The notes beneath the pieces are model-generated. The model was not told where the DNA came from. It ran no database searches and saw nothing but the letters and a program-made list of their open reading frames with translations. Below, piece by piece: positions 43,335 through 57,483 of a stretch of 64,000 nucleotides of DNA. The translations under genes and the position numbers were made by a program. How positions within the stretch are numbered: position 1 is the stretch's first letter; the number at the start of each line of letters is the position of its first letter. The stretch is from positions 32,001 through 96,000 of the forward strand of contig CBFIBM010000002.1 in assembly GCA_965660855.1 (NCBI GenBank). Direction: 5' to 3'. The DNA is from an uncultured bacterium. GTDB taxonomy: Bacteria > Fidelibacterota > Marinisomatia > Marinisomatales > UBA1611.

Positions 43335-44302
43335 TTCTATTTACTATTCTCCATAAAGAAGATGTTGGTAAAAGACTAGATAGATATTTAGTTCAAAAAA
43401 TAAAAAATGAATCAAGATCAAAAATTCAAAATTGGATACGATCAAAATTAGTTCTCGTAAATAAACTACACAAAAAAACAGGTTATTTATTAGAACTCGA
43501 AGATGAAATTCGGCTCAAAATACCAGATTCCCCTCCAATCAATAGTGAAAAACCAGAGCCGATAGAACTAAATATTGTTTATGAAGATGATGAAATAGCC
43601 GTAATAGATAAACCTTCAGGTTTAGTTGTTCATTCTGGTATTTCTAATACATCTGGAACTCTTGTAAATGGTCTCCTTTTTCATTTTAAATCATTATCAG
43701 CAGGAAATCAATCTTTTAGACCTGGTATAATTCATAGATTAGACAAAGAAACATCAGGTGTTATCGTTATTGCAAAAACAGATTTTGCTCATTCAAAAAT
43801 AAGCAAACAGTTTCAAAATAGAGAGGTTGAAAAGAAGTATATTGCTTTAACATGGGGACAATGGGAAAAAAAACATGGTTTTATAGATTTTTCAATTGGA
43901 CGTAATCGTAAAGAGCCAACATCTTTTATTATCGATGAAAAAGGAAAAGCATCTTTAACAAAATATTCTGTGGAAAAACAATTTCGACATTTAGCACTAG
44001 TATCCTTTTTTCCAAAAACAGGAAGGACGCATCAAATAAGAGTTCACTCTTCTTCTTTGGGGCATCCTATTTTTGGGGACGGTAAGTATGGTGGAGGCGT
44101 ATCAAAAGCAAAAGGATATTTACCTGAGTTCACAAATTTTTATAAAAAGAATATTAAAGAATTAGATCGACACGTTTTACATGCGAAAGAAATTAAATTT
44201 AAACACCCTAAAAATAATAAAATTATGAATTTTAAGGCGCAATTACCTAAAGAGATATTAAATTTGATTAATTCATTAGAAACACTTTATGAAAAAAAAT
44301 AA
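43223..44302 (+). CDS. rluD: RluA-family pseudouridine synthase (RluD-like); real start probably near 43331
   Basis: S4 domain RLDRYL...SRS, DKPSGLVVH, HRLDKETSG, TGRTHQIRVH. Confidence 0.88.
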   Translation: MVCIQCCGFFSNNWNGSLYYLFNYGRKIKLNKTNPNLILFTILHKEDVGKRLDRYLVQKIKNESRSKIQNWIRSKLVLVNKLHKKTGYLLELEDEIRLKIPDSPPINSEKPEPIELNIVYEDDEIAVIDKPSGLVVHSGISNTSGTLVNGLLFHFKSLSAGNQSFRPGIIHRLDKETSGVIVIAKTDFAHSKISKQFQNREVEKKYIALTWGQWEKKHGFIDFSIGRNRKEPTSFIIDEKGKASLTKYSVEKQFRHLALVSFFPKTGRTHQIRVHSSSLGHPIFGDGKYGGGVSKAKGYLPEFTNFYKKNIKELDRHVLHAKEIKFKHPKNNKIMNFKAQLPKEILNLINSLETLYEKK

Positions 44303-45299
44303 CAATTCAACCTTTCATGAATTTCTAGTATTCATTAAAAAAGAGCGAGGATATAGTCTCAACACTATTGATGCATACAAAACAGATATCAAAAAGTTCA
44401 ATTGTTTCCTTTTACAATATTTTGATTCATCAAATATTGATTATAAAAAAGTAGACAAATGGGCTTTGAGGAATTTTTTTGGAAAAGAAGAAGAAGAAGG
44501 TATCAGTAGTAAGTCACGTAGGCGGAGATTATCTAGTATAAGGACTTTCTTTAAGTTTTTAAATAGAGAGAATAAAATTACTAAAAATCCAGCGTTAGAT
44601 ATTTCATTACCAGCAATTAATAAAAATATTCCCTTTATAATACCAAAAGAGAGTCCAAACCCAAATGATAAAACAGGAAAAACAAAAATAGATAATATCC
44701 AAGCACTCGTTAATCAACCTAATATAGATTATCAAAAAAGTAAAATAGAAAAAAAGGAGAGAAAAGGTGCATACCTTAGAATGCTTAGAAATACTGCTAT
44801 ATTAGAACTGTTTTATGCAACAGGTATTCGTTTAAGTGAGCTAGTGAACTTAAATATCAACTCGTTTAATGTAAATGAAATGTTACTTAAGGTGAGAGGA
44901 AAGGGAGATAAAGAAAGATTAATTCCATTTGGTAGAAAAGCAATGAACTCTATTTCTCATTATTTAGATGAAAGATCTTTGAATTGGGATTCAAATGGTG
45001 AAAGGCCTATTTTTTGTGGTTGGGGTGAAAAAAGAATTTCTCAAAGGTTAGTTCAATTAATCTTAAAAGATTATCTTTCCACAATTCTAAGGTCAATTGA
45101 TATTAGAAATCCCAAAGGAACTAGTCCTCACACTATTAGACATACATTTGCAACACATTTATTAGAGGCTGATGTAGATATTAGAATCATACAAGAACTT
45201 TTAGGGCATAGTAGTATAAGTTCAACACAAATATATACCAAAGTTGATACTAAAAAATTAATTGAAATTTATAAAGAATCACACCCTCATGGTTCCTAA
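44289..45299 (+). CDS. xerC: Tyrosine recombinase, XerC/XerD type
   Basis: ERGYSLNT..AY N-domain, GIRLSEL, GKGDKER, HTIRH, LLGH, TQIY; housekeeping context. XerC vs XerD not certain. Confidence 0.8.
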   Translation: MKKNNNSTFHEFLVFIKKERGYSLNTIDAYKTDIKKFNCFLLQYFDSSNIDYKKVDKWALRNFFGKEEEEGISSKSRRRRLSSIRTFFKFLNRENKITKNPALDISLPAINKNIPFIIPKESPNPNDKTGKTKIDNIQALVNQPNIDYQKSKIEKKERKGAYLRMLRNTAILELFYATGIRLSELVNLNINSFNVNEMLLKVRGKGDKERLIPFGRKAMNSISHYLDERSLNWDSNGERPIFCGWGEKRISQRLVQLILKDYLSTILRSIDIRNPKGTSPHTIRHTFATHLLEADVDIRIIQELLGHSSISSTQIYTKVDTKKLIEIYKESHPHGS

Positions 45300-45314: not shown

Positions 45315-46937
45315 ATGATAAATAATGAAAATATAAATTTAAAAGTCTTAGGATTAAAAAATCAAAAAAAGATATGCAGAAATTTACCAGTTGAATTATT
45401 AATTGATGATATCATTAATAATAATGAAGGTATTGTAGGACCAAAAGGATCAGTGTTGGTAGATACGGGGATATATACTGGGAGATCTCCTAAGGATAAA
45501 TATTTTGTTGAAGAATCATCTTCAAAAGATAAAATATGGTGGGGAGAGGTTAATAAAAAAATATCAAACGATACTTTTGATATCCTTTATAAAAAAGTAG
45601 TACAACATTATAATGAAGAGGGCTCATCGAATACGTATATATTTGATGGATTTGCCGGTGCTGATAAAGAACATACTTTGAATGTTAGGTTTATTGCAAA
45701 AAAAGCGTGGCAATCACATTTTGTGCATAACATGTTTATTAGGCCAAACAACAATGATTTAGATGATTTTCAGCCTGGATTTACTATCATTAATGCATCA
45801 GAGGTATACAATGAAGATTTTAAAAAATTAGGTATGCACTCTGAAACTTTTATAGTATTTCATTTAGAAAAGAGAATCGCTATAATTGGAGGAACTGAAT
45901 ATGGAGGAGAAATGAAGAAAGGTATTTTTTCAGTTTTACATTATCTCCTTCCACAGAAGAATATCCTCTCAATGCATTGTTCAGCAAATGTTGATCATAA
46001 CTATGAGAATACTGCAATATTTTTTGGACTTTCTGGAACAGGAAAAACTACTCTAAGTACTGATCCTAATCGTCCTTTAATAGGTGATGATGAGCATGGA
46101 TGGTCAGATAATGGAGTTTTTAATTTTGAAGGTGGTTGCTATGCTAAACTTATTAACTTAGATCCAAATGAAGAGCCTGATATTTTTGGGGCAATAAGGC
46201 AAGGAGCATTGGTAGAAAATGTAGTTTATAATGAAAAAAAACAAGAAATTGATTTTTCAGATGGGTCAAAAACACAGAATACAAGAGTTTCATACCCAAT
46301 TAGTCATATCGAAAATTCTGTTTCAAATAAAGGGAAAGAGAGTATTGCAGGCCATCCGGAAAAAATAATTTTTCTCACTTGTGATGCCTATGGAGTTTTA
46401 CCACCAACAGCAAAACTAAATCCAAACCAAGCAATGTATCATTTCATCAGCGGTTATACTGCAAAAATTGCAGGAACTGAATTGGGCGTCAATAAACCTT
46501 TGGCAACATTTTCTCCTTGTTTTGGAGGACCTTTTCTAACCCTTCATCCCTTAAAATATGCGGAGTTATTAAAAAATAAAATTGAACAATTTAATACTAA
46601 GATTTATATGGTAAATACTGGTTGGGTTGGAAGTGATGCAAGCTCTGGTTCAAAACGTTTTAGTCTACCAAAAACTCGTTTAATTATAAATTCCATTTTA
46701 AGTGGTGATATTGAATCTTCAGATTTTACTATAGATCATTATTTTGGCTTTAAAATACCAAAAAAGATAGATGGGATAGAAAGTAGTTTATTAAACCCTA
46801 TAGCTGCTTGGAGAGATTTTAAAAGCTATAAAACTGCGGCAGAAAAATTAGTGCTAAAGTTTCAAGAAAATTACGAAAAATATGATTTAGGTGATAAAAT
46901 GGTAGCTTTGGGAGGTCCTAGAATTCCAAAAGAATAA
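45315..46937 (+). CDS. pckA: Phosphoenolpyruvate carboxykinase (ATP)
   Basis: TGRSPKDK, YGGEMKKG, GLSGTGKTTLS, IGDDEHGW, FEGGCYAK. Confidence 0.97.
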   Translation: MINNENINLKVLGLKNQKKICRNLPVELLIDDIINNNEGIVGPKGSVLVDTGIYTGRSPKDKYFVEESSSKDKIWWGEVNKKISNDTFDILYKKVVQHYNEEGSSNTYIFDGFAGADKEHTLNVRFIAKKAWQSHFVHNMFIRPNNNDLDDFQPGFTIINASEVYNEDFKKLGMHSETFIVFHLEKRIAIIGGTEYGGEMKKGIFSVLHYLLPQKNILSMHCSANVDHNYENTAIFFGLSGTGKTTLSTDPNRPLIGDDEHGWSDNGVFNFEGGCYAKLINLDPNEEPDIFGAIRQGALVENVVYNEKKQEIDFSDGSKTQNTRVSYPISHIENSVSNKGKESIAGHPEKIIFLTCDAYGVLPPTAKLNPNQAMYHFISGYTAKIAGTELGVNKPLATFSPCFGGPFLTLHPLKYAELLKNKIEQFNTKIYMVNTGWVGSDASSGSKRFSLPKTRLIINSILSGDIESSDFTIDHYFGFKIPKKIDGIESSLLNPIAAWRDFKSYKTAAEKLVLKFQENYEKYDLGDKMVALGGPRIPKE

Positions 46938-46982
46938 TAAAATTTATAATTTTTTTTTGTTTTTTATTTTCTTAATTTATGT

Positions 46983-47030
46983 AGTCGGTTTTGAACCATA
47001 TTGCTCGACTTTAAAATAGCTAAAAAGGTT
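46983..47030 (+). promoter_or_regulatory. SAM-II-class riboswitch aptamer
   Basis: P1 AGTCGG/TCGACT, loop TTTTGAACCATATTGC, 3' TAGCTAAAAAGG; AACC can pair with GGTT (pseudoknot); sits upstream of the metH-metK-ahcY operon. Confidence 0.85.
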
Positions 47031-47037
47031 TTATAAT

Positions 47038-47064
47038 AAGCCGGTTTAGTGCCGGTTTTTTTTT
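47038..47064 (+). terminator. Riboswitch-associated intrinsic terminator
   Basis: AAGCCGG-TTTAGTG-CCGGTTT with a 9-T run ending directly at the metH ATG. Confidence 0.8.
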
Positions 47065-50000
47065 ATGCAAAAATTAGAACAATTATTAAAAGAAAATATT
47101 TTAGTTATGGATGGTGCGATGGGTACCATGATCCAAGAATATAAATTAGAAGAACTTGATTTTAGAGGTGAACAGTTTCTTAATCATCATTCTGATTTAA
47201 AAGGTAACAATGATATTCTATCCATCACGCGCCCGGATATTATTGAAAAGATACATGATAGTTATCTTAAATCAGGTGCAGATATAATTGAGACTAATTC
47301 TTTTAATTCAACTAGTATATCACAAGCAGACTATGGTTTAGAGAATATAGTTTATGAATTGAATAAATGTTCTGCAAAACTAGCAGTATCTGCATGTAAA
47401 AAATACAATGTCAAAAATAACAATAAGCCTCGTTTTGTTTGTGGTTCTATTGGACCAACAAATAAAACTGCATCTATGAGTCCAGATGTGTCTAGTCCTG
47501 GTTTTAGAAATATTGATTTTGATGAGCTAAAAGACTCTTACTCTGAACAGATTAGAGGCTTAATTGATGGTGGTGTAGATTTACTACTCATAGAAACTGT
47601 ATTTGACACACTTAATTGTAAAGCAGCAATTTTTGCAGTAGATACAGTTTTTGAAGAAAAGGAAGTTAACATACCATTAATGATTTCTGGTACAATAACT
47701 GATGCCAGTGGACGGCTCCTATCTGGTCAAACGGTTGAAGCTTTCTGGCATTCAATAAGACATGCTAATTTAATTGCTGTGGGCCTCAACTGTGCATTAG
47801 GTGCAGAGCAAATGAGGCCTTATATTCATGAATTTTCTAAAATAGCAGATACAAATATATTAGTGTACCCTAATGCAGGTTTACCTAATGAGTTTGGAGG
47901 CTATGATGAAAGTCCAAAAGATATGGCAGTCTATCTTGAAGAATTTGCATCATCAGGATTAGTTAACATAATTGGCGGATGCTGTGGAACAAGCCCAGGG
48001 CATATTTTTGAATTTTCTAATTCAATAAAAAATTTAAAACCACGTCAAATTCCATCTTTTGAGCCTTTGACAAAGTTAAGTGGTTTAGAATCAGTTACAA
48101 TTCGTTCTGAATCTAATTTCATTAATATTGGGGAAAGAACAAACGTAACAGGATCAATAAAATTCAAAAGATTAATTAAAGAAGATAAATATGATGAAGC
48201 ATTATCTGTGGCACTTGATCAAGTTAAAAATGGTGCACAAATAATAGATGTTAATATGGATGAAGGTCTTATTGATGGTGAAAAAGCTATGGTTAAATTT
48301 TTACGATTAATTGCAGCTGAGCCTGATATCTCTAAAGTGCCGATCATGATAGACTCTTCTAAATGGTCAGTAATTGAAGAGGGCTTGAAGAATATCCAAG
48401 GGAAGGGTATTGTTAATTCAATCTCATTAAAAGAAGGTGAAGAAGAATTTATAAGGCAAGCTAGACTTGTGAGGAAATATGGAGCTTCTGTTATTGTAAT
48501 GGCTTTTGATGAAAAAGGACAAGCAGATAGTTACAAAAGGAAGATAGAAATTTGTAAACGAGCATATAATATTTTAACAGGTATAGTTAAAATTGATCCA
48601 GAAGATATTATTTTTGATCCTAATATTTTTGCAATAGCGACTGGAATAGAGGAACATAATCAATACGGCAAAGCATTTATTGAAGCTTCAAGATTTATAA
48701 AAAAGAAAATGCCTTATTCACATGTAAGCGGTGGGGTTAGTAACCTTTCCTTTTCTTTTCGTGGTAATAATGGAGTAAGGGAGGCAATGCATTCATGCTT
48801 TCTTTATCATGCAACCCAAAATGGAATGGATATGGGTATTGTAAATCCAGGCCAACTTACATTATATGATGACATAGATGAAAAATTGAAGGAAGCAATA
48901 GAGGATGTTTTATTTAATCGCAATCAAAATGCTACTGAAAATTTAGTTGTTATAGCTGAGAATTATAGAGGTGTGAAAAAGAATAAAATAGTAGAAAACA
49001 AATGGCGTTCTCTTCCAATTTTTGAACGCCTTGCGTACTCGTTAGTGGAGGGAATAGATCAGTTTATAATTGAAGATACTGAATTAGCTAGGAAAAATTT
49101 AAAAAAACCAATTGATGTAATTGAAGGTCCATTAATGGATGGTATGAATAAGGTAGGTGATTTATTTGGGTCTGGAAAGATGTTTTTACCACAGGTTGTA
49201 AAGTCAGCAAGAGTGATGAAAAAATCAGTTGGTTATCTAGTTCCTTTCATTGAAAAAGAGAAAAAGCATAATAATATTAAGCAAGCAACCAATGGAACAA
49301 TAGTGTTAGCAACTGTGAAAGGGGATGTTCATGATATTGGCAAAAATATTGTTGGAGTTGTTTTAGGTTGTAATGGATATAATATTATTGATTTAGGTGT
49401 AATGGTAGCTACAGACAAAATTATCAATGCAGCAATCGAATCAAAAGCAGATATTTTAGGACTTTCTGGCCTAATCACACCTAGCCTTGAGGAGATGGTA
49501 TATGTTGCATCGGAAATGAAAAGAAGAAATCTCAATATTCCATTATTGATTGGTGGAGCAACTACAAGTAAAAAACATACTGCTGTAAAGATTGATGAAA
49601 AATATCCCAGGAATGTATTTCATGTTTTAGATGCAAGTAGATGTGTAGGTGTTGTATCCAAGTTGCTGAAACCAAAGGAAAAAAGAATTTTCATAAGTGA
49701 AATGAGAGATGAATATGAGACATTAAGAGATAACTTTTATGAAAGTCAGAAGTCTTTTAAGTTTTTAACTTTGAATGAAGCTAGGTTAAATAAACCAAGC
49801 TTAAGTTATAATCCATATCTACCTAAAAATTTTGGTATAAAGTGTTTTGAATCAATTCCTTTGAAAAAACTGGTAAATTATATTGATTGGGCACCATTCT
49901 TTCATGCTTGGGAACTGCATGGTAGTTTTCCCAAAATTCTCGATGATGAGAAGATAGGATCTGAAGCAAAAAAACTTTTCGATGATGGTAAGAAAATGTT

Positions 50001-50628
50001 AAATATGATTGTTGAAAAAAATCTATTAGTTGCAAAAGGTATTTATGGTCTTTTTTCTGCTAAATCAAACTTTGAAGAAGTAATAATTAAAGAAAAAAAT
50101 ATTAAATTTAAATTTCCACGACAACTTATAGATAAAGGGAAAAATCCTAATTTTTGTTTAGCAGATTATATCTCATCAGAAAATGAAGATTGTATTGGAC
50201 TTTTCGCCGTAACTGCTGGACATGGTTTAAAGAAAATTGTTGATGTGTATGAAAAAGATTTAGATGATTATAATGCTATAATGGCTAAAGTTCTTGCAGA
50301 CAGGCTTGCTGAAGCTGCAGCTGAGTGGATGCATGAATATGTAAGAAAAATAGGTTGGGGTTATGATAAGAATGAATCGGTAAATTTTGAAGAAATGTTA
50401 AAAGAAAAATATATTGGAATTAGACCTGCTCCTGGATATCCTGCATGCCCTTCTCATGAAGAAAAAGATAAAATATGGAGTCTTTTAAATATAGAAAAAA
50501 GAATAGGGATTTCTTTAACTGAATCTCGTGCAATGCTGCCCACTGCATCAGTTTCGGGATGGTATTTTTCGCATCCTGAGTCTCGATATTTTAGTGTTTT
50601 AAAAAATGAGTTGAAAAATGAGAATTAA
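47065..50628 (+). CDS. metH: Cobalamin-dependent methionine synthase
   Basis: [30 protein letters not shown]12 motif, [10 protein letters not shown]. Confidence 0.98.
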
Positions 50629-51565
50629 AGATAAAATAAAAAAACCACAAAGGCCAGTGGTCGCCTACGAAATTTTGCCGCCAAGGGAAAAGGATGGTAC
50701 TCTTAACTCTTACGCTGAGACTATTAGTTCCCTTTTATCTCAAACCCATATAGATGCAATAAATATCCCGGAAGTACATGATGAGGCAGGAAGAGGAGAT
50801 CGGCCTGTAGCAAATCATGAAAGAGGTGAACCTCGTAAATTTGGTTCACTTCTTCAAGATATTGTAGGAATTGAATCTATAGTCAATAGGGTTGTTGTTC
50901 ATGAAAAATTTGAAGTTCAAAAAAACTGGATCAAAGAAACAAATAAAAAATATGAAATTGAAAACTTAATAATAGTAGGTGGTGAATCCAGTTCAATTTC
51001 TTATCCAGGACCATCAGTTAATCAAGCATTGAAATATATTAAAGAGTCTTATAACCAACTTAGTGGAAATATCCTTTCCGGTTGTATCGCAATTCCTAGC
51101 AGGAAAAATGAATCTCAAAACTTATTAAAAAAAAGCCATAATGGTGCAGAATTTTTCACGACTCAGGTACTTTATGATTCAAATAATATAATAAAAATGA
51201 TTAATAATTATCAAAATTTATGTAATGTAGATAAAACCTTTCCAAGAAGAATATTATTAAGCTTTGCTCCTGTATCATCTCAAAAAAACATTAATTTTTT
51301 AAAATGGCTTGGAGTTGAAATTCCTATCGAAACAGAAAGGTATCTACAAGCTAGACCTGGTTCGATGTCAGAAAGATCTTTAGATGTTGCAATCGAGGTT
51401 CTGAACGAGGTACTTGATTATATCATAGAAAAAAAGTTAAAAGTTCCCATTGGCTTAAATATAGAGCATATCATGTCTTATAATTTTCAATATTCAGTTG
51501 AAATGCTTCAAGAATTAGCAAGAATTTATCGTGAATTTTGTATTAAGACTAAACAATATAATTAA
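50618..51565 (+). CDS. Methylenetetrahydrofolate reductase-like protein, resembling the mycobacterial flavin-independent type
   Basis: [39 protein letters not shown]; located between metH and metK. Confidence 0.75.
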
Positions 51566-51612: not shown

Positions 51613-52788
51613 ATGAGTAAACTTTTATTTACATCTGAGTCCGTAACTGAAGGTCATCCTGATAAAGCATGCGATGCATTCTCAGATGCTATTTTGGATA
51701 GTATTCTTGAACAAGATACAGAAGCACATGTTGCATGTGAATCTCTAGCAACAAAAGGTCTTGTTGTTGTTTCAGGAGAGATTAGAACATCAGCAAATAT
51801 TAATGTTGAAAGTATAATCAAAGATACAATTAGGTATATCGGCTACCACAAAGGAAATAGTGGTGTTGATCCAATTAAAGTTGAAATTTTAAATCATCTT
51901 CACGAGCAAAGTCATGAAATTGCACAAGGGGTTGATTCCGAAAGTATCTCTGATCAAGGTGCAGGAGACCAAGGTCTTATGTTTGGATATGCATGTAAAG
52001 AAACTCCAGAATTAATGCCTCTTCCTATTCAAATTTCTCATAGACTTACAGAAAAATTATCCGTTTTAAGAAAAGATGGTTCTTTACCATGGTTAAGGCC
52101 TGATGGTAAATCACAGGTTTCAGTTTTTTATGAAAATGGTATTCCTAAATCTATAGATAAAACTGTAATTGCAACCCAGCATGATGATATGCTAGATAAA
52201 TATGGTTCAGAAGAAAAAGAATTGGAATTCGTGAAAAGTGAAATTGAAAACAAAGTAATTATACCAGTTTTAGAGTCATATGGATATGATTATAAAAATG
52301 AATTTATTGTTAATGGAACTGGTCGTTTTGTTTATGGTGGTCCAGAAGCTGATACTGGTTTAACTGGAAGAAAAATCATTGTTGATACTTATGGTGGCTA
52401 TGCCCCTCACGGTGGGGGAGCATTTTCAGGTAAAGATTCATCTAAAGTAGATCGCAGTGCAACTTATATGGCAAGATATATTGCAAAGAATATTGTTGCA
52501 TCTGAATTAGCTGAAAAATGTGAGGTCCAACTTTCATACGGTATAGGTGTAGCAGAACCTACATCTTTTTACGTAAAAACATTCAATACCGGGAAAGTAG
52601 ATGATGAATCTCTTACAAAAATTGCAAGAGAAATTTTTCCAATAAGACCTGGTGAAATAGTTAAACACCTAGACCTAAAAAAACCACGTTATAGAAATAC
52701 TGCGGCTTATGGCCATTTTGGAAGAGAACTAGAAGAGTTTACATGGGAAAAAATCGATATGGTTAATTCTCTACAATCAAAAATATAG
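51613..52788 (+). CDS. metK: S-adenosylmethionine synthetase
   Basis: [28 protein letters not shown]. Confidence 0.98.
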
Positions 52789-52795
52789 GAAAAAA

Positions 52796-54238
52796 ATGAG
52801 TAATACAATTATTAAAGAAATAGTAGAAAATCTACCTTATAAAGTTAGAGATATTTCCCTTGCATCTGATGGTCGTAAATCATTAAATATTTCAGAAAAA
52901 GAGATGCCTGGATTAATGGCAACAAGGGAAAAATATGGTCAAGAAAAACCTTTAGCAGGTAAAAAAATTACCGGTTCACTTCACATGACTGTGGAGACAG
53001 CAATTTTAATTGAAACATTAGTTGAATTAGGAGCAGATGTGCGTTGGGCAAGTTGTAATATCTTTTCAACTCAAGATGAGGCTGCAGCCGTTATAGCTGA
53101 AGCAGGAATACCTGTTTTTGCTTGGAAAGGTGAGACTCTTGAAGAATACTGGTGGTGTACAATGCAAGCACTTACATTTCCCGATGGTTCAGGACCAGAT
53201 TTAATAGTAGATGATGGTGGAGATGCCACACTACTTATTCATAAAGGTTATGAATTAGAAAAATATTTTGCTAAGAACGGAACAACGCCTGAAATCAAAA
53301 CAAATGTAGAAGAAGAAATCATTGTAGAAAAGTTAATTAGAGAGGTACTTGAAAAAGATCCGAACCATTGGTTTAAAGTTCAAAAAAATATAATAGGAGT
53401 ATCTGAAGAGACAACAACGGGCGTACATAGACTTGTTCAGATGGAGAAGGAAGGCAAATTACTTTTCCCTGCTTACAATGTAAATGATTCCGTTACAAAA
53501 TCTAAATTTGATAATGTATATGGCTGTAGAGAATCACTTGCAGACGGTTTAAAAAGGTCTCTAGATGTAATGCTTGCTGGAAAAACTATTGTTGTTTGTG
53601 GATATGGAGATGTAGGTAGAGGATGTGCCCAATCTATGAAAGGGTATGGAGCAAGAGTAATTGTTACTGAAATTGATCCAATTTGTGCACTACAGGCTGC
53701 AATGGAAGGGTTTGAAGTAAATACTCTTGAAAATTCAATCAAAGAAGCACATATATTTGTTACTACTACTGGAAATAAAGATGTTATAACAACGGCTCAT
53801 ATGCATAAAATGAATGACCAATCTATAGTATGTAATATCGGACATTTTGATAATGAAATCCAAGTTTATGCCTTAAACAGTGATCAGAGTGTAAAAAAAG
53901 AGGAAGTAAAGCCACAAGTTGATCAATACACTTTTCCTAATGGAAATAAAATATTCATTTTAGCAGAAGGTAGGTTAGTTAACTTAGGTTGTGCTACCGG
54001 TCATTCAAGTTTTGTAATGTCTAATTCCTTTACAAATCAAGTTCTTGCTCAATTGGCTTTGGCTGCAGATGCTCCTGAGGTTGGTGTTTACATGCTTCCA
54101 AAAGAATTAGATGAAGAGGTCGCTAGATTACATTTAGATCATCTTGGAGTAGTTCTTACTGAATTATCTGATGAACAAGCTGACTATATTGGGGTTCCCA
54201 AAGAGGGTCCTTATAAACCAGATCACTACAGATATTAA
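52796..54238 (+). CDS. ahcY: Adenosylhomocysteinase
   Basis: [41 protein letters not shown]. Confidence 0.98.
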
Positions 54239-54263: not shown

Positions 54264-54297
54264 AACCCCAGTTAATTAGCTGGGGTTTTTTGTTTTT
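54264..54297 (+). terminator. Intrinsic terminator of the met operon
   Basis: AACCCCAG-TTAATTAG-CTGGGGTT followed by a T-rich tract after ahcY. Confidence 0.88.
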
Positions 54298-54357: not shown

Positions 54358-57300
54358 ATGAAGGTAAAACCGAGACATATTTTATTACGCATTAAAAAGG
54401 GTATTTTATATCCATCACTTGTAGCTACACTACTAAGTACAGTAGCGTGTGATTTTGATATTCCAAATAAATTTGAAATGCCTACCTGGTATTTGGAATT
54501 AAAGATTCCTCTTCTACAAACAAAACTTCCCATGACAGACCTTGTCGATTCATTAACAATTTTCCCTAAGGATAGTCTAGGATTTCAAATTATTCAATCT
54601 GGATCGATGCCAGCAACAGAGCTTCCAACTTTGCCTTCAATTCCAGTAGGGCTTGACCAAGCAATTTCATCAGGTGAAATTCCAGGAGTTTCGCTTAATA
54701 TACCCATTCCACTTCCTGACCCAGTTGAAACAAAAATACCAGTTGTTAATACAGAAATACAATATTTAGATACAACAGATATAAAAGATCCTTTAACTGG
54801 TATTATCCTTGCTGATTATACGCCTTTTAATTTTCCTAACTTGGATACAGTAGTGATGGATTCTCAGACATATAATGCATTAATTGTAGCTCCTTTTAAT
54901 ATAATTGTTGAAGGAATATTTACTGATTTAGCTACACAAATTGAAATTGGTTTATCAAATATCGAGCCTCCCTCAGACCCACCAATTATAGCAAGTATTG
55001 ATACTTTAATCATCGCTACCGATGAAGAAAATAGTATTTACAGAACATTATTTAAAAATAATTACATTCCAACAAATGTTGAGGGAATTTTTTCGCATTT
55101 GGTTACAGGAAATTTTCAGCCATTGCAAGATACTCTAGCTAATCATAATAAAGTACCATCACTAAGTAATGGTGAAACATACGCGGATACAACATCTTTA
55201 TCTGGAAAAGGATTAACTAATTTTCTTAAAATAGCAAGTAGCCTCTCACTTCAAAAAGCAACTACAGAATATATTACAATTCCACCTTTACTAGAACCTG
55301 ATTTGATGTGGGTCGATTTTCATTTTTTATTTAGTATACCTGGGATAGGAGCTATAGATATAACAACAAATAATTATTCAATGTCAGATGGAATCGAAAT
55401 GCCAGATATGAGATTGCCTGAGATGGATATGTCAGAATCAGGTATTACAAAAATGGAAATTTATAGAAATATAATTAAATCAGCTGAGCTTGGAGCCTTA
55501 GATTTTGAAAATAAATTAATAATTCAAAATTTAGCTAGTACTTTTCCTTTTGATTTAGAATTTTTATTAGATTTTCAAAACTTTTTCCCACCAAGTGGAA
55601 ATGAGTTAGTTCGAATTGATACTATTTTAAGAGCTGGCGTAGAAATTAATAAAATATTTAACTTAGCCGGAGATACTTTACAAAGTATTGTTCCGGATAA
55701 TAATAATGATTCTTGGCCAGATAGTGCATTTACAAGTTTTGATCTAATTTTAGATATTACGGTACCTACTCAAAAAGCTAGAATTCCTCTTGATGGTACT
55801 CCCCTTGGTGAGTTTACTATGAACATGAACCTACAGCAATTGTCTTTCTCTGAAATTGGTGCCAATATGTATATGGAAATGCCTGCAGATGAAACTTCCC
55901 AAGAATTTCCTCCAGGATTTACAGGTGCAATACCTACAGAAGCAGAGTTTAATTTAATATTTAAAAATCAGATTCAGCTTCCAATTCAGATGTCTATGCA
56001 ATTTAAAGGTTATAACTCTTTAGGTGAGTTAACATATGTACCTGTCAATATTGATACAATGGGTCTTCCATTAACAAGTAGTGATTTGGATACGGCGGTT
56101 ACAGTAATTTCATTAAATAAATTAGGGACGACAATTTCTATTTTTAATGAAATTGATTTATTTAATTCATATTTATTAGATCCTTTGGAAGTATCTCCTT
56201 CATTTACAAAAACAGAAGTTCCATGCGATACTTGTTCATCTATAATTGATTTATTAGCATCTAACCCTGTACAATTGGTAATAGTTCCAGAAGTTAAAAT
56301 TGATGGACGAGGATCTATTACTGCAAATAAAGCAATAGCTGGTGGATTTGAAGTAAAAATACCATTTATTCTACAAATAGAGCCAATGGCCTTTTTAGGA
56401 GGAACTGCTACGGAGATTAAGCCATTTGATCATCAAACTAGATATAAAATAAGAAATAGCCTTTTAGAGACTAGTCTAGTATCAACAATCACCAATGCAA
56501 TGCCATTTGGTGCTGAGGTGTCTGTATTGATGAGTAATTTAGAATTTTTTCCTACAGATACATCTAGAGAACAGTTAAACTTTTTTCGAGATACTTTAAT
56601 AAGTCAAGGTAAATTATCTATGGGAGATAGTTTATATATTGTTAGAGAGTGCAATGAAATATCTCCTGATAGCAGTGCAGTTTATGTCTTTAATGTAATG
56701 ACAGATTTTTCTGATTGTATAAATGGCTTACCATATATTGTAAAATCTAATGGTGTATCAAGAGATACAATATTTTCTTACGTAGATACATTATTTAAAT
56801 TTACTCTTCCAGATCCAGAATCCTATTATGGTGCAAATGATACTACTGGATATCCCCAAGGTATGGTAGCTATCCCTGGAACTGGGGTTTATCCAAGCAC
56901 TATTGACACCTCTCAGATTTTTCTGTTAACTGACTTTGGTTCTCATTACACTATGCCAAGATTTTATTTACCCGGAACTGGAAATAAATCTGTTTTTCTA
57001 TCCAAAGATGATTACTTGGATATAAGCTCATTTATAACATTTACATTAAGTAGCTCTGGCGCTTTTGGGTCTGCAGCTAATGAATTACTAATAATTTCAC
57101 CAAATGGAACAGAAACTTTTTATGATGATGAAGAATTGAATATAAAGTGGGTAGCATTAGGGGAAAGCGAAGAAAAAGTTGATTTATTTTATTCAACTTC
57201 AACTGATTCCAGTACTTATAAAAAAAGCTTGGATTCATGTAAGCAAACTACTGATTGGATTTTAATAGAAAATGGGTTGACCAGTGTAGCAGATACAAAT

Positions 57301-57483
57301 TCATATTCTTGGTCACTATCTAATCTCTCCTTTCAGGACTCGTTAAAAATTAGACTTAAAGTAGTGTACTCTAATGGTGAAGCTTGTGATATCAACGGTT
57401 ATTTTGTGAATATAAAGAAAAGGTCTCTTTCTAGGGGATTTGCAATATCTAGAAAGTATAAAGTCAGTAGTAGTTTCAAATGA
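54358..57483 (+). CDS. Large acidic lipoprotein of unknown function
   Basis: 1041-aa ORF; basic then hydrophobic signal ending TVAC (Cys31); beta-rich; C-terminal ISPNG.E...IKW Ig-like module. Confidence 0.7.
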   Translation: MKVKPRHILLRIKKGILYPSLVATLLSTVACDFDIPNKFEMPTWYLELKIPLLQTKLPMTDLVDSLTIFPKDSLGFQIIQSGSMPATELPTLPSIPVGLDQAISSGEIPGVSLNIPIPLPDPVETKIPVVNTEIQYLDTTDIKDPLTGIILADYTPFNFPNLDTVVMDSQTYNALIVAPFNIIVEGIFTDLATQIEIGLSNIEPPSDPPIIASIDTLIIATDEENSIYRTLFKNNYIPTNVEGIFSHLVTGNFQPLQDTLANHNKVPSLSNGETYADTTSLSGKGLTNFLKIASSLSLQKATTEYITIPPLLEPDLMWVDFHFLFSIPGIGAIDITTNNYSMSDGIEMPDMRLPEMDMSESGITKMEIYRNIIKSAELGALDFENKLIIQNLASTFPFDLEFLLDFQNFFPPSGNELVRIDTILRAGVEINKIFNLAGDTLQSIVPDNNNDSWPDSAFTSFDLILDITVPTQKARIPLDGTPLGEFTMNMNLQQLSFSEIGANMYMEMPADETSQEFPPGFTGAIPTEAEFNLIFKNQIQLPIQMSMQFKGYNSLGELTYVPVNIDTMGLPLTSSDLDTAVTVISLNKLGTTISIFNEIDLFNSYLLDPLEVSPSFTKTEVPCDTCSSIIDLLASNPVQLVIVPEVKIDGRGSITANKAIAGGFEVKIPFILQIEPMAFLGGTATEIKPFDHQTRYKIRNSLLETSLVSTITNAMPFGAEVSVLMSNLEFFPTDTSREQLNFFRDTLISQGKLSMGDSLYIVRECNEISPDSSAVYVFNVMTDFSDCINGLPYIVKSNGVSRDTIFSYVDTLFKFTLPDPESYYGANDTTGYPQGMVAIPGTGVYPSTIDTSQIFLLTDFGSHYTMPRFYLPGTGNKSVFLSKDDYLDISSFITFTLSSSGAFGSAANELLIISPNGTETFYDDEELNIKWVALGESEEKVDLFYSTSTDSSTYKKSLDSCKQTTDWILIENGLTSVADTNSYSWSLSNLSFQDSLKIRLKVVYSNGEACDINGYFVNIKKRSLSRGFAISRKYKVSSSFK

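Follow-up and report, generated by a model that had tools for sequence, protein, structure and literature searches.

Locus organization

The 64,000-nucleotide stretch of contig CBFIBM010000002.1 (GenBank assembly GCA_965660855.1) analysed here, referred to below as the window, has a G+C content of 30.7% and comes from an uncultured bacterium whose closest named records are titled Candidatus Neomarinimicrobiota or Marinimicrobia (SAR406). We examined a candidate riboswitch for S-adenosylmethionine (SAM), of the SAM-II class, that lies between pckA and metH. The stop codon of pckA (46937) and the start codon of metH (47065) are separated by 127 AT-rich bases, which hold a pseudoknot aptamer at 46984-47029 and a hairpin followed by a run of T at 47038-47064; these elements and all the genes named in this section are on the + strand. 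The upstream gene, pckA (45315-46937), encodes an ATP-dependent phosphoenolpyruvate carboxykinase (Pfam PF01293, E 7.5e-205), and metH (47065-50628) a cobalamin-dependent methionine synthase (NCBIfam NF007024, 1923 bits against a cut-off of 1497, with five Pfam domains). Behind metH follow a divergent gene resembling methylenetetrahydrofolate reductase (MTHFR; 50618-51565), whose first 11 nt lie within the end of metH, then metK for SAM synthetase (51613-52788; three Pfam domains, E 2e-65 to 4e-36) and ahcY for S-adenosylhomocysteine (SAH) hydrolase (52796-54238; Pfam PF05221, E 6e-141). A terminator-like hairpin with a 10-pair stem (5 G-C) and a T-rich tail at 54264-54297 is the likely end of the operon. 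An earlier note, made from the letters of the sequence without database searches, had named the four genes metH, MTHFR, metK and ahcY, and Pfam and NCBIfam bear these calls out. For the MTHFR-like gene the match is weak, reaching 31.2 bits with PF02219 (cut-off 24) over residues 159-267 and staying far under the cut-off in NCBIfam; the gene, which shows 70-77% identity in relatives, is thus at most weakly MetF-like by sequence.

The gene directly after the leader is metH in all 67 unique leaders that we collected, which places the element consistently in the leader of a methionine/SAM gene. Among eight genomes sampled from the same family, five keep the full operon of metH, the MTHFR-like gene, metK and ahcY; the other three, all from one genus, have metH alone. 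Six genomes of other families were also inspected, and metK-ahcY lies downstream in two of them, with metH only found within 8 kb in the remaining four. At one locus (L159, G047:C10) the matches to the MTHFR-like gene and to ahcY fall into several shifted pieces, which suggests frameshifts or assembly errors in that genome.

Assignment to the SAM-II class

At gathering thresholds the Rfam models gave no match to any family in the whole window. A permissive scan of 241 bases returned SAM_alpha at 22.2 bits (cut-off 36, E 0.004), SAM_V at 25.3 bits (cut-off 41, E 0.03) and the SAM-II long-loop family RF01726 at 13.3 bits (cut-off 44, E 5.5). The earlier note had proposed comparison with the SAM-II and SAM-V covariance models as a check on its reading, and the outcome was divided: both models stay under their cut-offs, and the same site is the best match for both across the 2.09-Mb assembly, which is 84% complete (E 0.008 for SAM_alpha and 0.067 for SAM_V). 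Other weak SAM_V matches in this genome, one inside an open reading frame (ORF) and one in a convergent gap without a downstream gene, were dropped as chance. A first scan of 54 genomes of the family with SAM_V likewise gave 23 weak places, 11 of them at the metH leader and the other 12 in unrelated sequence.

A covariance model specific to the lineage, R1, was built from the leaders of ten relatives. The MAFFT alignment A1 had misaligned the P1 helix of the window copy, and this copy was kept out of the seed, so that the model is independent of it. R1 identified the window site as the sole match in its genome (43.3 bits, E 7e-9), and it found one strong match per genome (E 7e-9 or better) in 42 of the 54 family genomes and a match in all 15 of those that are at least 90% complete. 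At the homologous site the Rfam SAM-II model scores above its curated cut-off in 22 of the 54 genomes, with up to 48.2 bits, and SAM_V does so in none. The SAM-II cut-off was also passed at 4 of the 20 more distant metH loci that were scanned out of 80 fetched, three of them from Marinimicrobia and one from Gemmatimonadaceae. Because the window copy's own score is under threshold, its membership rests on homology to copies that pass. Since SAM-II passes in 22 of the family genomes and SAM_V in none, and since the P3 stem-loop of SAM-V is absent, we assign the element by homology to the SAM-II riboswitch class, as a divergent and AT-rich member. The Rfam threshold recovers 22 of 54 family genomes against 42 to 43 found with the lineage-specific model; it misses about half of these AT-rich copies, so riboswitch censuses of streamlined marine genomes would undercount.

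Structure and conservation of the aptamer

The aptamer is an H-type pseudoknot of two helices. The 5' strand of P1 (46984-46988) pairs with 47005-47009, giving in the window four Watson-Crick pairs and a closing G.U, or five of the six pairs of the family. Within the P1 loop lie L1 (46989-46995), the predicted U-rich third strand of a triple helix, in which UUUG is invariant in 42 family sequences, and then the 3' half of the loop (46996-47004), which is the 5' strand of P2. The latter pairs with the P2 3' strand (47019-47029), which has an unpaired U at 47021, contains a GC-U-AA core that is invariant in all 65 distinct sequences, and is also the switching sequence. The linker L3 (47010-47018), as read from the sequence, has nine nucleotides, nearly all of them A or U, and no stem-loop. 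Compared with the family, the window copy has a P1 that is one pair shorter and an L3 that is five bases shorter; its two genus-mates keep the same layout, and every core position that is invariant in the family alignment is intact.

Covariation was measured on a model-fitted alignment of the 67 leaders (65 distinct). In P1, 96.1% of the cells are paired and three of the six pairs change on both sides; the corresponding figures for P2 are 94.4% and four of eight. Taken jointly, P1 and the pseudoknot are 95.1% paired with 7 of 14 pairs changing on both sides. None of 500 shuffles attained any of the five measures, and partners slid out of register were at most 57% paired. The pseudoknot that the earlier note had called SAM-II-like is therefore real, with both of its helices covarying at 46984-47029. 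As a whole, the 116-nt region folds no better than shuffled sequence (z -0.71). We noted an additional short hairpin, a 6-bp inverted repeat, directly 5' of the aptamer in two leaders of genus g13 (L045 and L048); it is absent in other genera.

In the solved SAM-II structure, U10-U12 form the third strand and U44 pairs with the adenine of SAM (Kelley and Hamelberg 2009). By alignment, the UUUG of L1 would correspond to U10-U12 and the unpaired U 47021 to U44. The ligand-site positions are invariant in our alignment: the unpaired U, the U-A pairs joined by a U of the third strand, the U-rich L1 and the UU-GC in the P2 5' strand. They probably correspond to the nucleotides by which SAM is bound in the solved structures of SAM-II and SAM-V.

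Terminator and antiterminator

The terminator scan placed an intrinsic terminator at 47038-47064, consisting of a hairpin (47038-47045/47051-47058; eight pairs, four of them G-C, with a 5-nt loop) that folds at -10.4 to -10.7 kcal/mol, and nine T at 47056-47064. The T-run directly abuts the metH ATG at 47065, and no purine-rich Shine-Dalgarno motif was found in the 30 bases 5' of that ATG, so the terminator touching an ATG without a Shine-Dalgarno, as the earlier note had it, is confirmed. Such a start is unremarkable here because the motif is rare. A core Shine-Dalgarno precedes 5 of the 44 window ORFs of at least 150 amino acids, against 2 of 44 at a control position, in a crude survey that assumed the first ATG to be the start; by this count, translation starts in the window appear to be mostly independent of the motif.

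The strand that closes the pseudoknot can also enter an alternative fold. An antiterminator at 47019-47050 combines an outer helix, GCUAAA (47019-47024) with UUUAGU (47045-47050), and an inner helix, GGUUU (47027-47031) with AAGCC (47038-47042). Both helices had been proposed in the earlier note; they are present, and jointly they are the minimum free energy (MFE) structure of the nascent window transcript cut at 47050 (-9.8 kcal/mol, z -5.19, with none of 200 tail shuffles as stable). The antiterminator, at -9.8 kcal/mol, is nearly isoenergetic with the terminator, at -10.4 kcal/mol. The leader thus has the composition of a riboswitch-controlled terminator: a GC stem with a U-run, and a mutually exclusive antiterminator that uses the switching strand of the aptamer.

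A hairpin of -6 kcal/mol or better that ends at a run of at least four T, the rule used for our scan, follows the aptamer in 64 of the 67 unique leaders. Two of the three that the rule missed (L089 and L132) have a hairpin with an interrupted U-run, and the third (L071) has none. L071 (G018:C87), which is upstream of metH, carries an intact aptamer (R1 54 bits) followed by about 30 AT-rich bases to the ATG, with neither hairpin nor U-run, and may be a variant without the attenuator, possibly translational. The U-run touches the ATG in 37 of the 64 leaders, and in the other 27, most of which come from other families, the two are 3 to about 25 bases apart.

In 44 of the 64 leaders the hairpin loop has a UAG in register with the CUA of the aptamer 3' strand, in an extended helix that averages 7.0 contiguous pairs. 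As these 44 were selected by the UAG, their three core pairs are paired by selection, and the information lies in the flanking pairs alone. In a plain MAFFT alignment of 42 distinct sequences, pairing in the outer helix reaches 85.1%, compared with at most 44% for slid partners, and its covariation of 0.169 against 0.132 was reached by 2 of 500 shuffles. The position adjoining the invariant core shows five pair types (U-A 17, C-G 9, U.G 5, A-U 1 and G-C 1), with 8 sequences unpaired and 1 with a gap or N; the outer helix of the proposed antiterminator therefore covaries in relatives. When the leaders were folded at nascent length, cut where the outer helix ends, the antiterminator was the MFE structure in 42 of the 44. 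Several of the 20 leaders without the UAG show other complementarity to the tail, as judged by eye. In four leaders of genus g11 (L072-L075, from G029-G032), whose terminator loops have no UAG complement to the tail, any antiterminator must be built differently; a PckA match was not found upstream of these, and the three genomes sampled from this genus (G029, G030 and G032) have metH alone, without metK or ahcY.

Upstream sequence, transcripts and flanking genes

From the pckA stop codon to 47038, the terminator scan gave no hit on the + strand, so that the earlier remark that no other terminator follows pckA holds. pckA is found upstream and on the same strand in 36 of the 42 family loci, and none of these 36 pckA-metH spacers has a hairpin and T-run of its own. 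Judged from this arrangement, it is plausible that the hairpin also ends pckA transcripts and so gates read-through.

A promoter-like pattern, TTGAxx-N16-18-TAxxxT, ends 5-11 nt before P1 in 24 of the 42 family loci, where 0.7 would be expected from shuffles. The window copy keeps a weak possible -10 box, TAATTT (46973-46978, + strand), 5 nt before P1, with no matching -35. A further promoter-like site inside the riboswitch (47010-47037) was taken as chance, as the scan gave 48 sites against 69.6 in shuffles.

All five genes are represented by pieces in the metatranscriptome contigs of four runs, with parts of pckA, metH, metK and ahcY at 93-99% likeness. These contigs carry no transcript starts, ends or strand, and among the pieces listed none bridges 46937-47065. 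In one run, X3, the bin that holds the leader (46926-47246) has a summed contig depth of 124.9, a contig-wide mean, where neighbouring bins have at most 5; the excess may stem from a short leader RNA present in abundance, or from a contig that belongs to another organism.

Outside the operon, a tyrosine recombinase gene (phage-integrase family, XerC/XerD type, with an N-terminal SAM-like domain) lies directly 5' of pckA at 44289-45299 (+). Directly past the terminator of ahcY is an ORF of 1041 amino acids (54358-57483, +) that belongs to no Pfam or NCBIfam family; its position is conserved in relatives, with 32-50% identity over the parts fetched.

Distribution of the element

R1 matches 29 of 151 sampled genomes of the phylum. 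These matches cover every sampled family of the window's order and some families of its class, with very few beyond. Five metH leaders from Gemmatimonadota (L117, L118, L132, L140 and L154, assigned to Gemmatimonadaceae, Gemmatimonadales or Gemmatimonas) have the same aptamer, with a G-C instead of a C-G as the outer pair of the pseudoknot; L117 passes the SAM-II cut-off at 46.2 bits. The scan found a hairpin and T-run in four of the five, the exception being L132. The metH leaders of L112 (Promineifilaceae) and L149 (Hymenobacter) carry a SAM-I riboswitch instead, at 87.6 and 71.9 bits respectively, so that the same gene is served by different classes of SAM aptamer in different phyla.

These results place SAM-II riboswitches in SAR406 (Marinimicrobia), an abundant uncultured lineage of the ocean. 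Our literature search found no paper on riboswitches in SAR406, and a paper on Caldithrix that holds both words does not treat them. As the sole R1 match in its genome, ahead of metH and, in the window's branch, of the whole SAM cycle, the element offers a direct handle on methyl-cycle regulation in metatranscriptomes.

Proposed mechanism and alternative explanations

We propose, with a probability of roughly 0.85 and on computational support, that this divergent AT-rich SAM-II member is a kinetic OFF switch acting by transcription attenuation. In the nascent leader the aptamer (46984-47029) would either bind SAM or stay empty. With SAM present, the P2 pseudoknot and the triple helix would hold the 3' strand (47019-47029) fast, the hairpin (47038-47058) and U-run would form, and RNA polymerase would halt at about 47060-47064, one base short of the metH start codon. 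With SAM absent, the same strand would pair instead with the 5' arm and loop of the terminator (47038-47050) to give the antiterminator, and transcription would continue into metH, the MTHFR-like gene, metK and ahcY. Because the aptamer 3' strand joins either the pseudoknot or the antiterminator, SAM would free the terminator and shut off these four genes. This is the core of what the earlier note had suggested, and the comparative and thermodynamic evidence supports it. The two structures exclude each other, and both are conserved and covary; from this we infer SAM binding, termination and the direction of control.

Several observations weigh against this interpretation. The window copy fails all three Rfam SAM-II-type cut-offs and is the lowest-scoring and most divergent of the 42 strong family matches. 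It also fails the strict promoter pattern, having a T-run in place of the -35 and only a -10-like hexamer. The leaders are related to one another, and the shuffle tests consequently overstate support; for the antiterminator, moreover, 44 leaders were picked from 64 by the UAG in their hairpin and the other 20 were judged by eye only. Finally, at full length the equilibrium fold is the terminator, with the tail free, in the window copy and in 49 of the 64 leaders, and 15 of the 64 prefer the antiterminator. Since the terminator wins at equilibrium, the switch must be kinetic, decided during transcription as in other attenuating riboswitches, and kinetic switching is beyond what folding programs can show.

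We considered whether the hairpin might act on translation, either alone or in addition to transcription. When SAM is bound, the stable stem of the hairpin, which reaches to 47058 upstream of an AUG without a Shine-Dalgarno, would block the landing site of the 30S subunit, and the antiterminator fold would leave a U-rich stretch at about 47051-47064 single-stranded. The direct contact between U-run and ATG in 37 leaders fits this idea, as does the rarity of Shine-Dalgarno motifs (5 of 44 ORFs), by which start sites probably depend on open leaders; translational SAM-II and SAM-V switches are, besides, already known (Huang and Lilley 2018; Scheuer 2022). The gaps of 3 to about 25 bases in 27 of the 64 leaders, however, imply that the U-run need not adjoin the ATG, and where it does, compaction of the genome may be the only reason. 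A GC stem with 6-9 U behind it is the hallmark of an intrinsic terminator, and we regard a translational role as possible but on balance unlikely. We give far less credence to a hairpin that is simply the constitutive terminator of pckA, uncoupled from the aptamer. The gene has no other terminator-like site, in the window or in the 36 family spacers behind it, and the terminator is the equilibrium fold of the full-length leader. Yet the loop and 3' arm of the hairpin covary with the aptamer 3' strand, and the hairpin is kept both where no PckA match was found upstream (L069 and L072-L075) and in the metH leaders of Gemmatimonadota. As the promoter-like site is upstream of the terminator, a terminator without a bypass would also silence metH in most relatives.

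The low score of the window copy, its shortened P1 and L3 and its lack of an evident -35 box could alternatively be taken to mean that this copy is a decaying relic that does not bind SAM, with the operon simply attenuated or read through from pckA. This is hard to square with the intact invariant core, with a window antiterminator that ranks with the best supported in the whole set of leaders (z -5.19), or with two genus-mates that retain the layout, and we consider it very improbable. Least probable of all, in our judgement, is that the element is a SAM-V riboswitch, or that it senses SAH rather than SAM, like the proteobacterial SAH riboswitches before ahcY, metF and metH. SAM_V gave the highest raw bit score on the window copy (25.3), and the operon content resembles SAH-riboswitch regulons; against this, SAM_V passes in none of the 54 family genomes where SAM-II passes in 22, there is no P3 stem-loop, and the U-A.U triple positions that give SAM preference in solved structures are conserved. 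The platform, furthermore, is wired as an OFF switch, and SAH switches turn genes on.

Under the attenuation model that we favour, a single hairpin and U-run of 27 bases might even do three jobs in this streamlined genome, as SAM attenuator, as the conditional and sole 3' end of pckA, and as a translation gate at an AUG without a Shine-Dalgarno. This is a speculative extension, which we think is probably not correct in full. If it were true, pckA and the methyl-cycle genes would be co-transcribed at low SAM, and a U-rich landing site touching the AUG would be hidden or exposed by the hairpin.

Comparison with known riboswitches

The targets of the window element overlap with those of the SAH riboswitch (ahcY, metF, metH) and of SAM-Chlorobi (metK-ahcY) (Leyn 2014). 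The folds of these two classes are unrelated to it, and neither class had a reported match in the window. The SAM-II long-loop variant (RF01726), described from marine and Bacteroidetes sequences, is a comparable marine, non-proteobacterial extension of SAM-II (Weinberg 2010), whereas the window copy reaches only 13.3 bits with this model against a cut-off of 44. With SAM-V (RF01826; metY of Candidatus Pelagibacter ubique) the element shares an H-type pseudoknot, a triple-helix site, marine AT-rich hosts and a loop resembling the SAM-V consensus. SAM-V is, however, described as acting on translation, and its P1 is followed by a P3 stem-loop of 3 bp (Huang and Lilley 2018); the window element has neither property.

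The closest relative is SAM-II itself (RF00521, SAM_alpha; the metA motif of Agrobacterium tumefaciens and the metZ leader of Sinorhizobium meliloti, with in vivo data for Sinorhizobium in Scheuer 2022). Common to both are P1 and a P2 loop-tail pseudoknot, a U-rich third strand and the unpaired U in a GC-U-AA core, as well as a promoter a few bases before P1 and, separating P2 from the ORF, an intrinsic terminator that is interpreted as an OFF switch (Corbino 2005; Barrick and Breaker 2007; Scheuer 2022). The earlier note had described SAM-II switches as mostly translational and mainly proteobacterial, and had drawn its claim of novelty from this. The description is only half true, and the premise of novelty does not stand. 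In the paper that defined the class, putative intrinsic terminators follow many SAM-II aptamers, the layout has a promoter shortly before P1, and copies are given for the Bacteroides group (Corbino 2005). SAM-II is named as the class most often tied to terminators, and listed in Bacteroidetes, by Barrick and Breaker (2007), and most SAM-II switches are stated to be transcriptional by Huang and Lilley (2018).

Terminator wiring after a SAM-II aptamer is accordingly textbook knowledge, and nothing here alters how SAM-II is known to work. What the present element adds is minor, and consists of its lineage, its regulon and its compact layout. It belongs to Candidatus Neomarinimicrobiota (SAR406) and not to the Proteobacteria, with a window copy under the Rfam cut-off. 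The proteobacterial SAM-II controls metY, metA, metX, hom and metC, the SAM-cycle genes being left to SAH riboswitches or SahR (Leyn 2014), whereas the window element stands before metH and the SAM-cycle genes themselves. As a further difference, its U-run touches the start codon of the gene that it would control.

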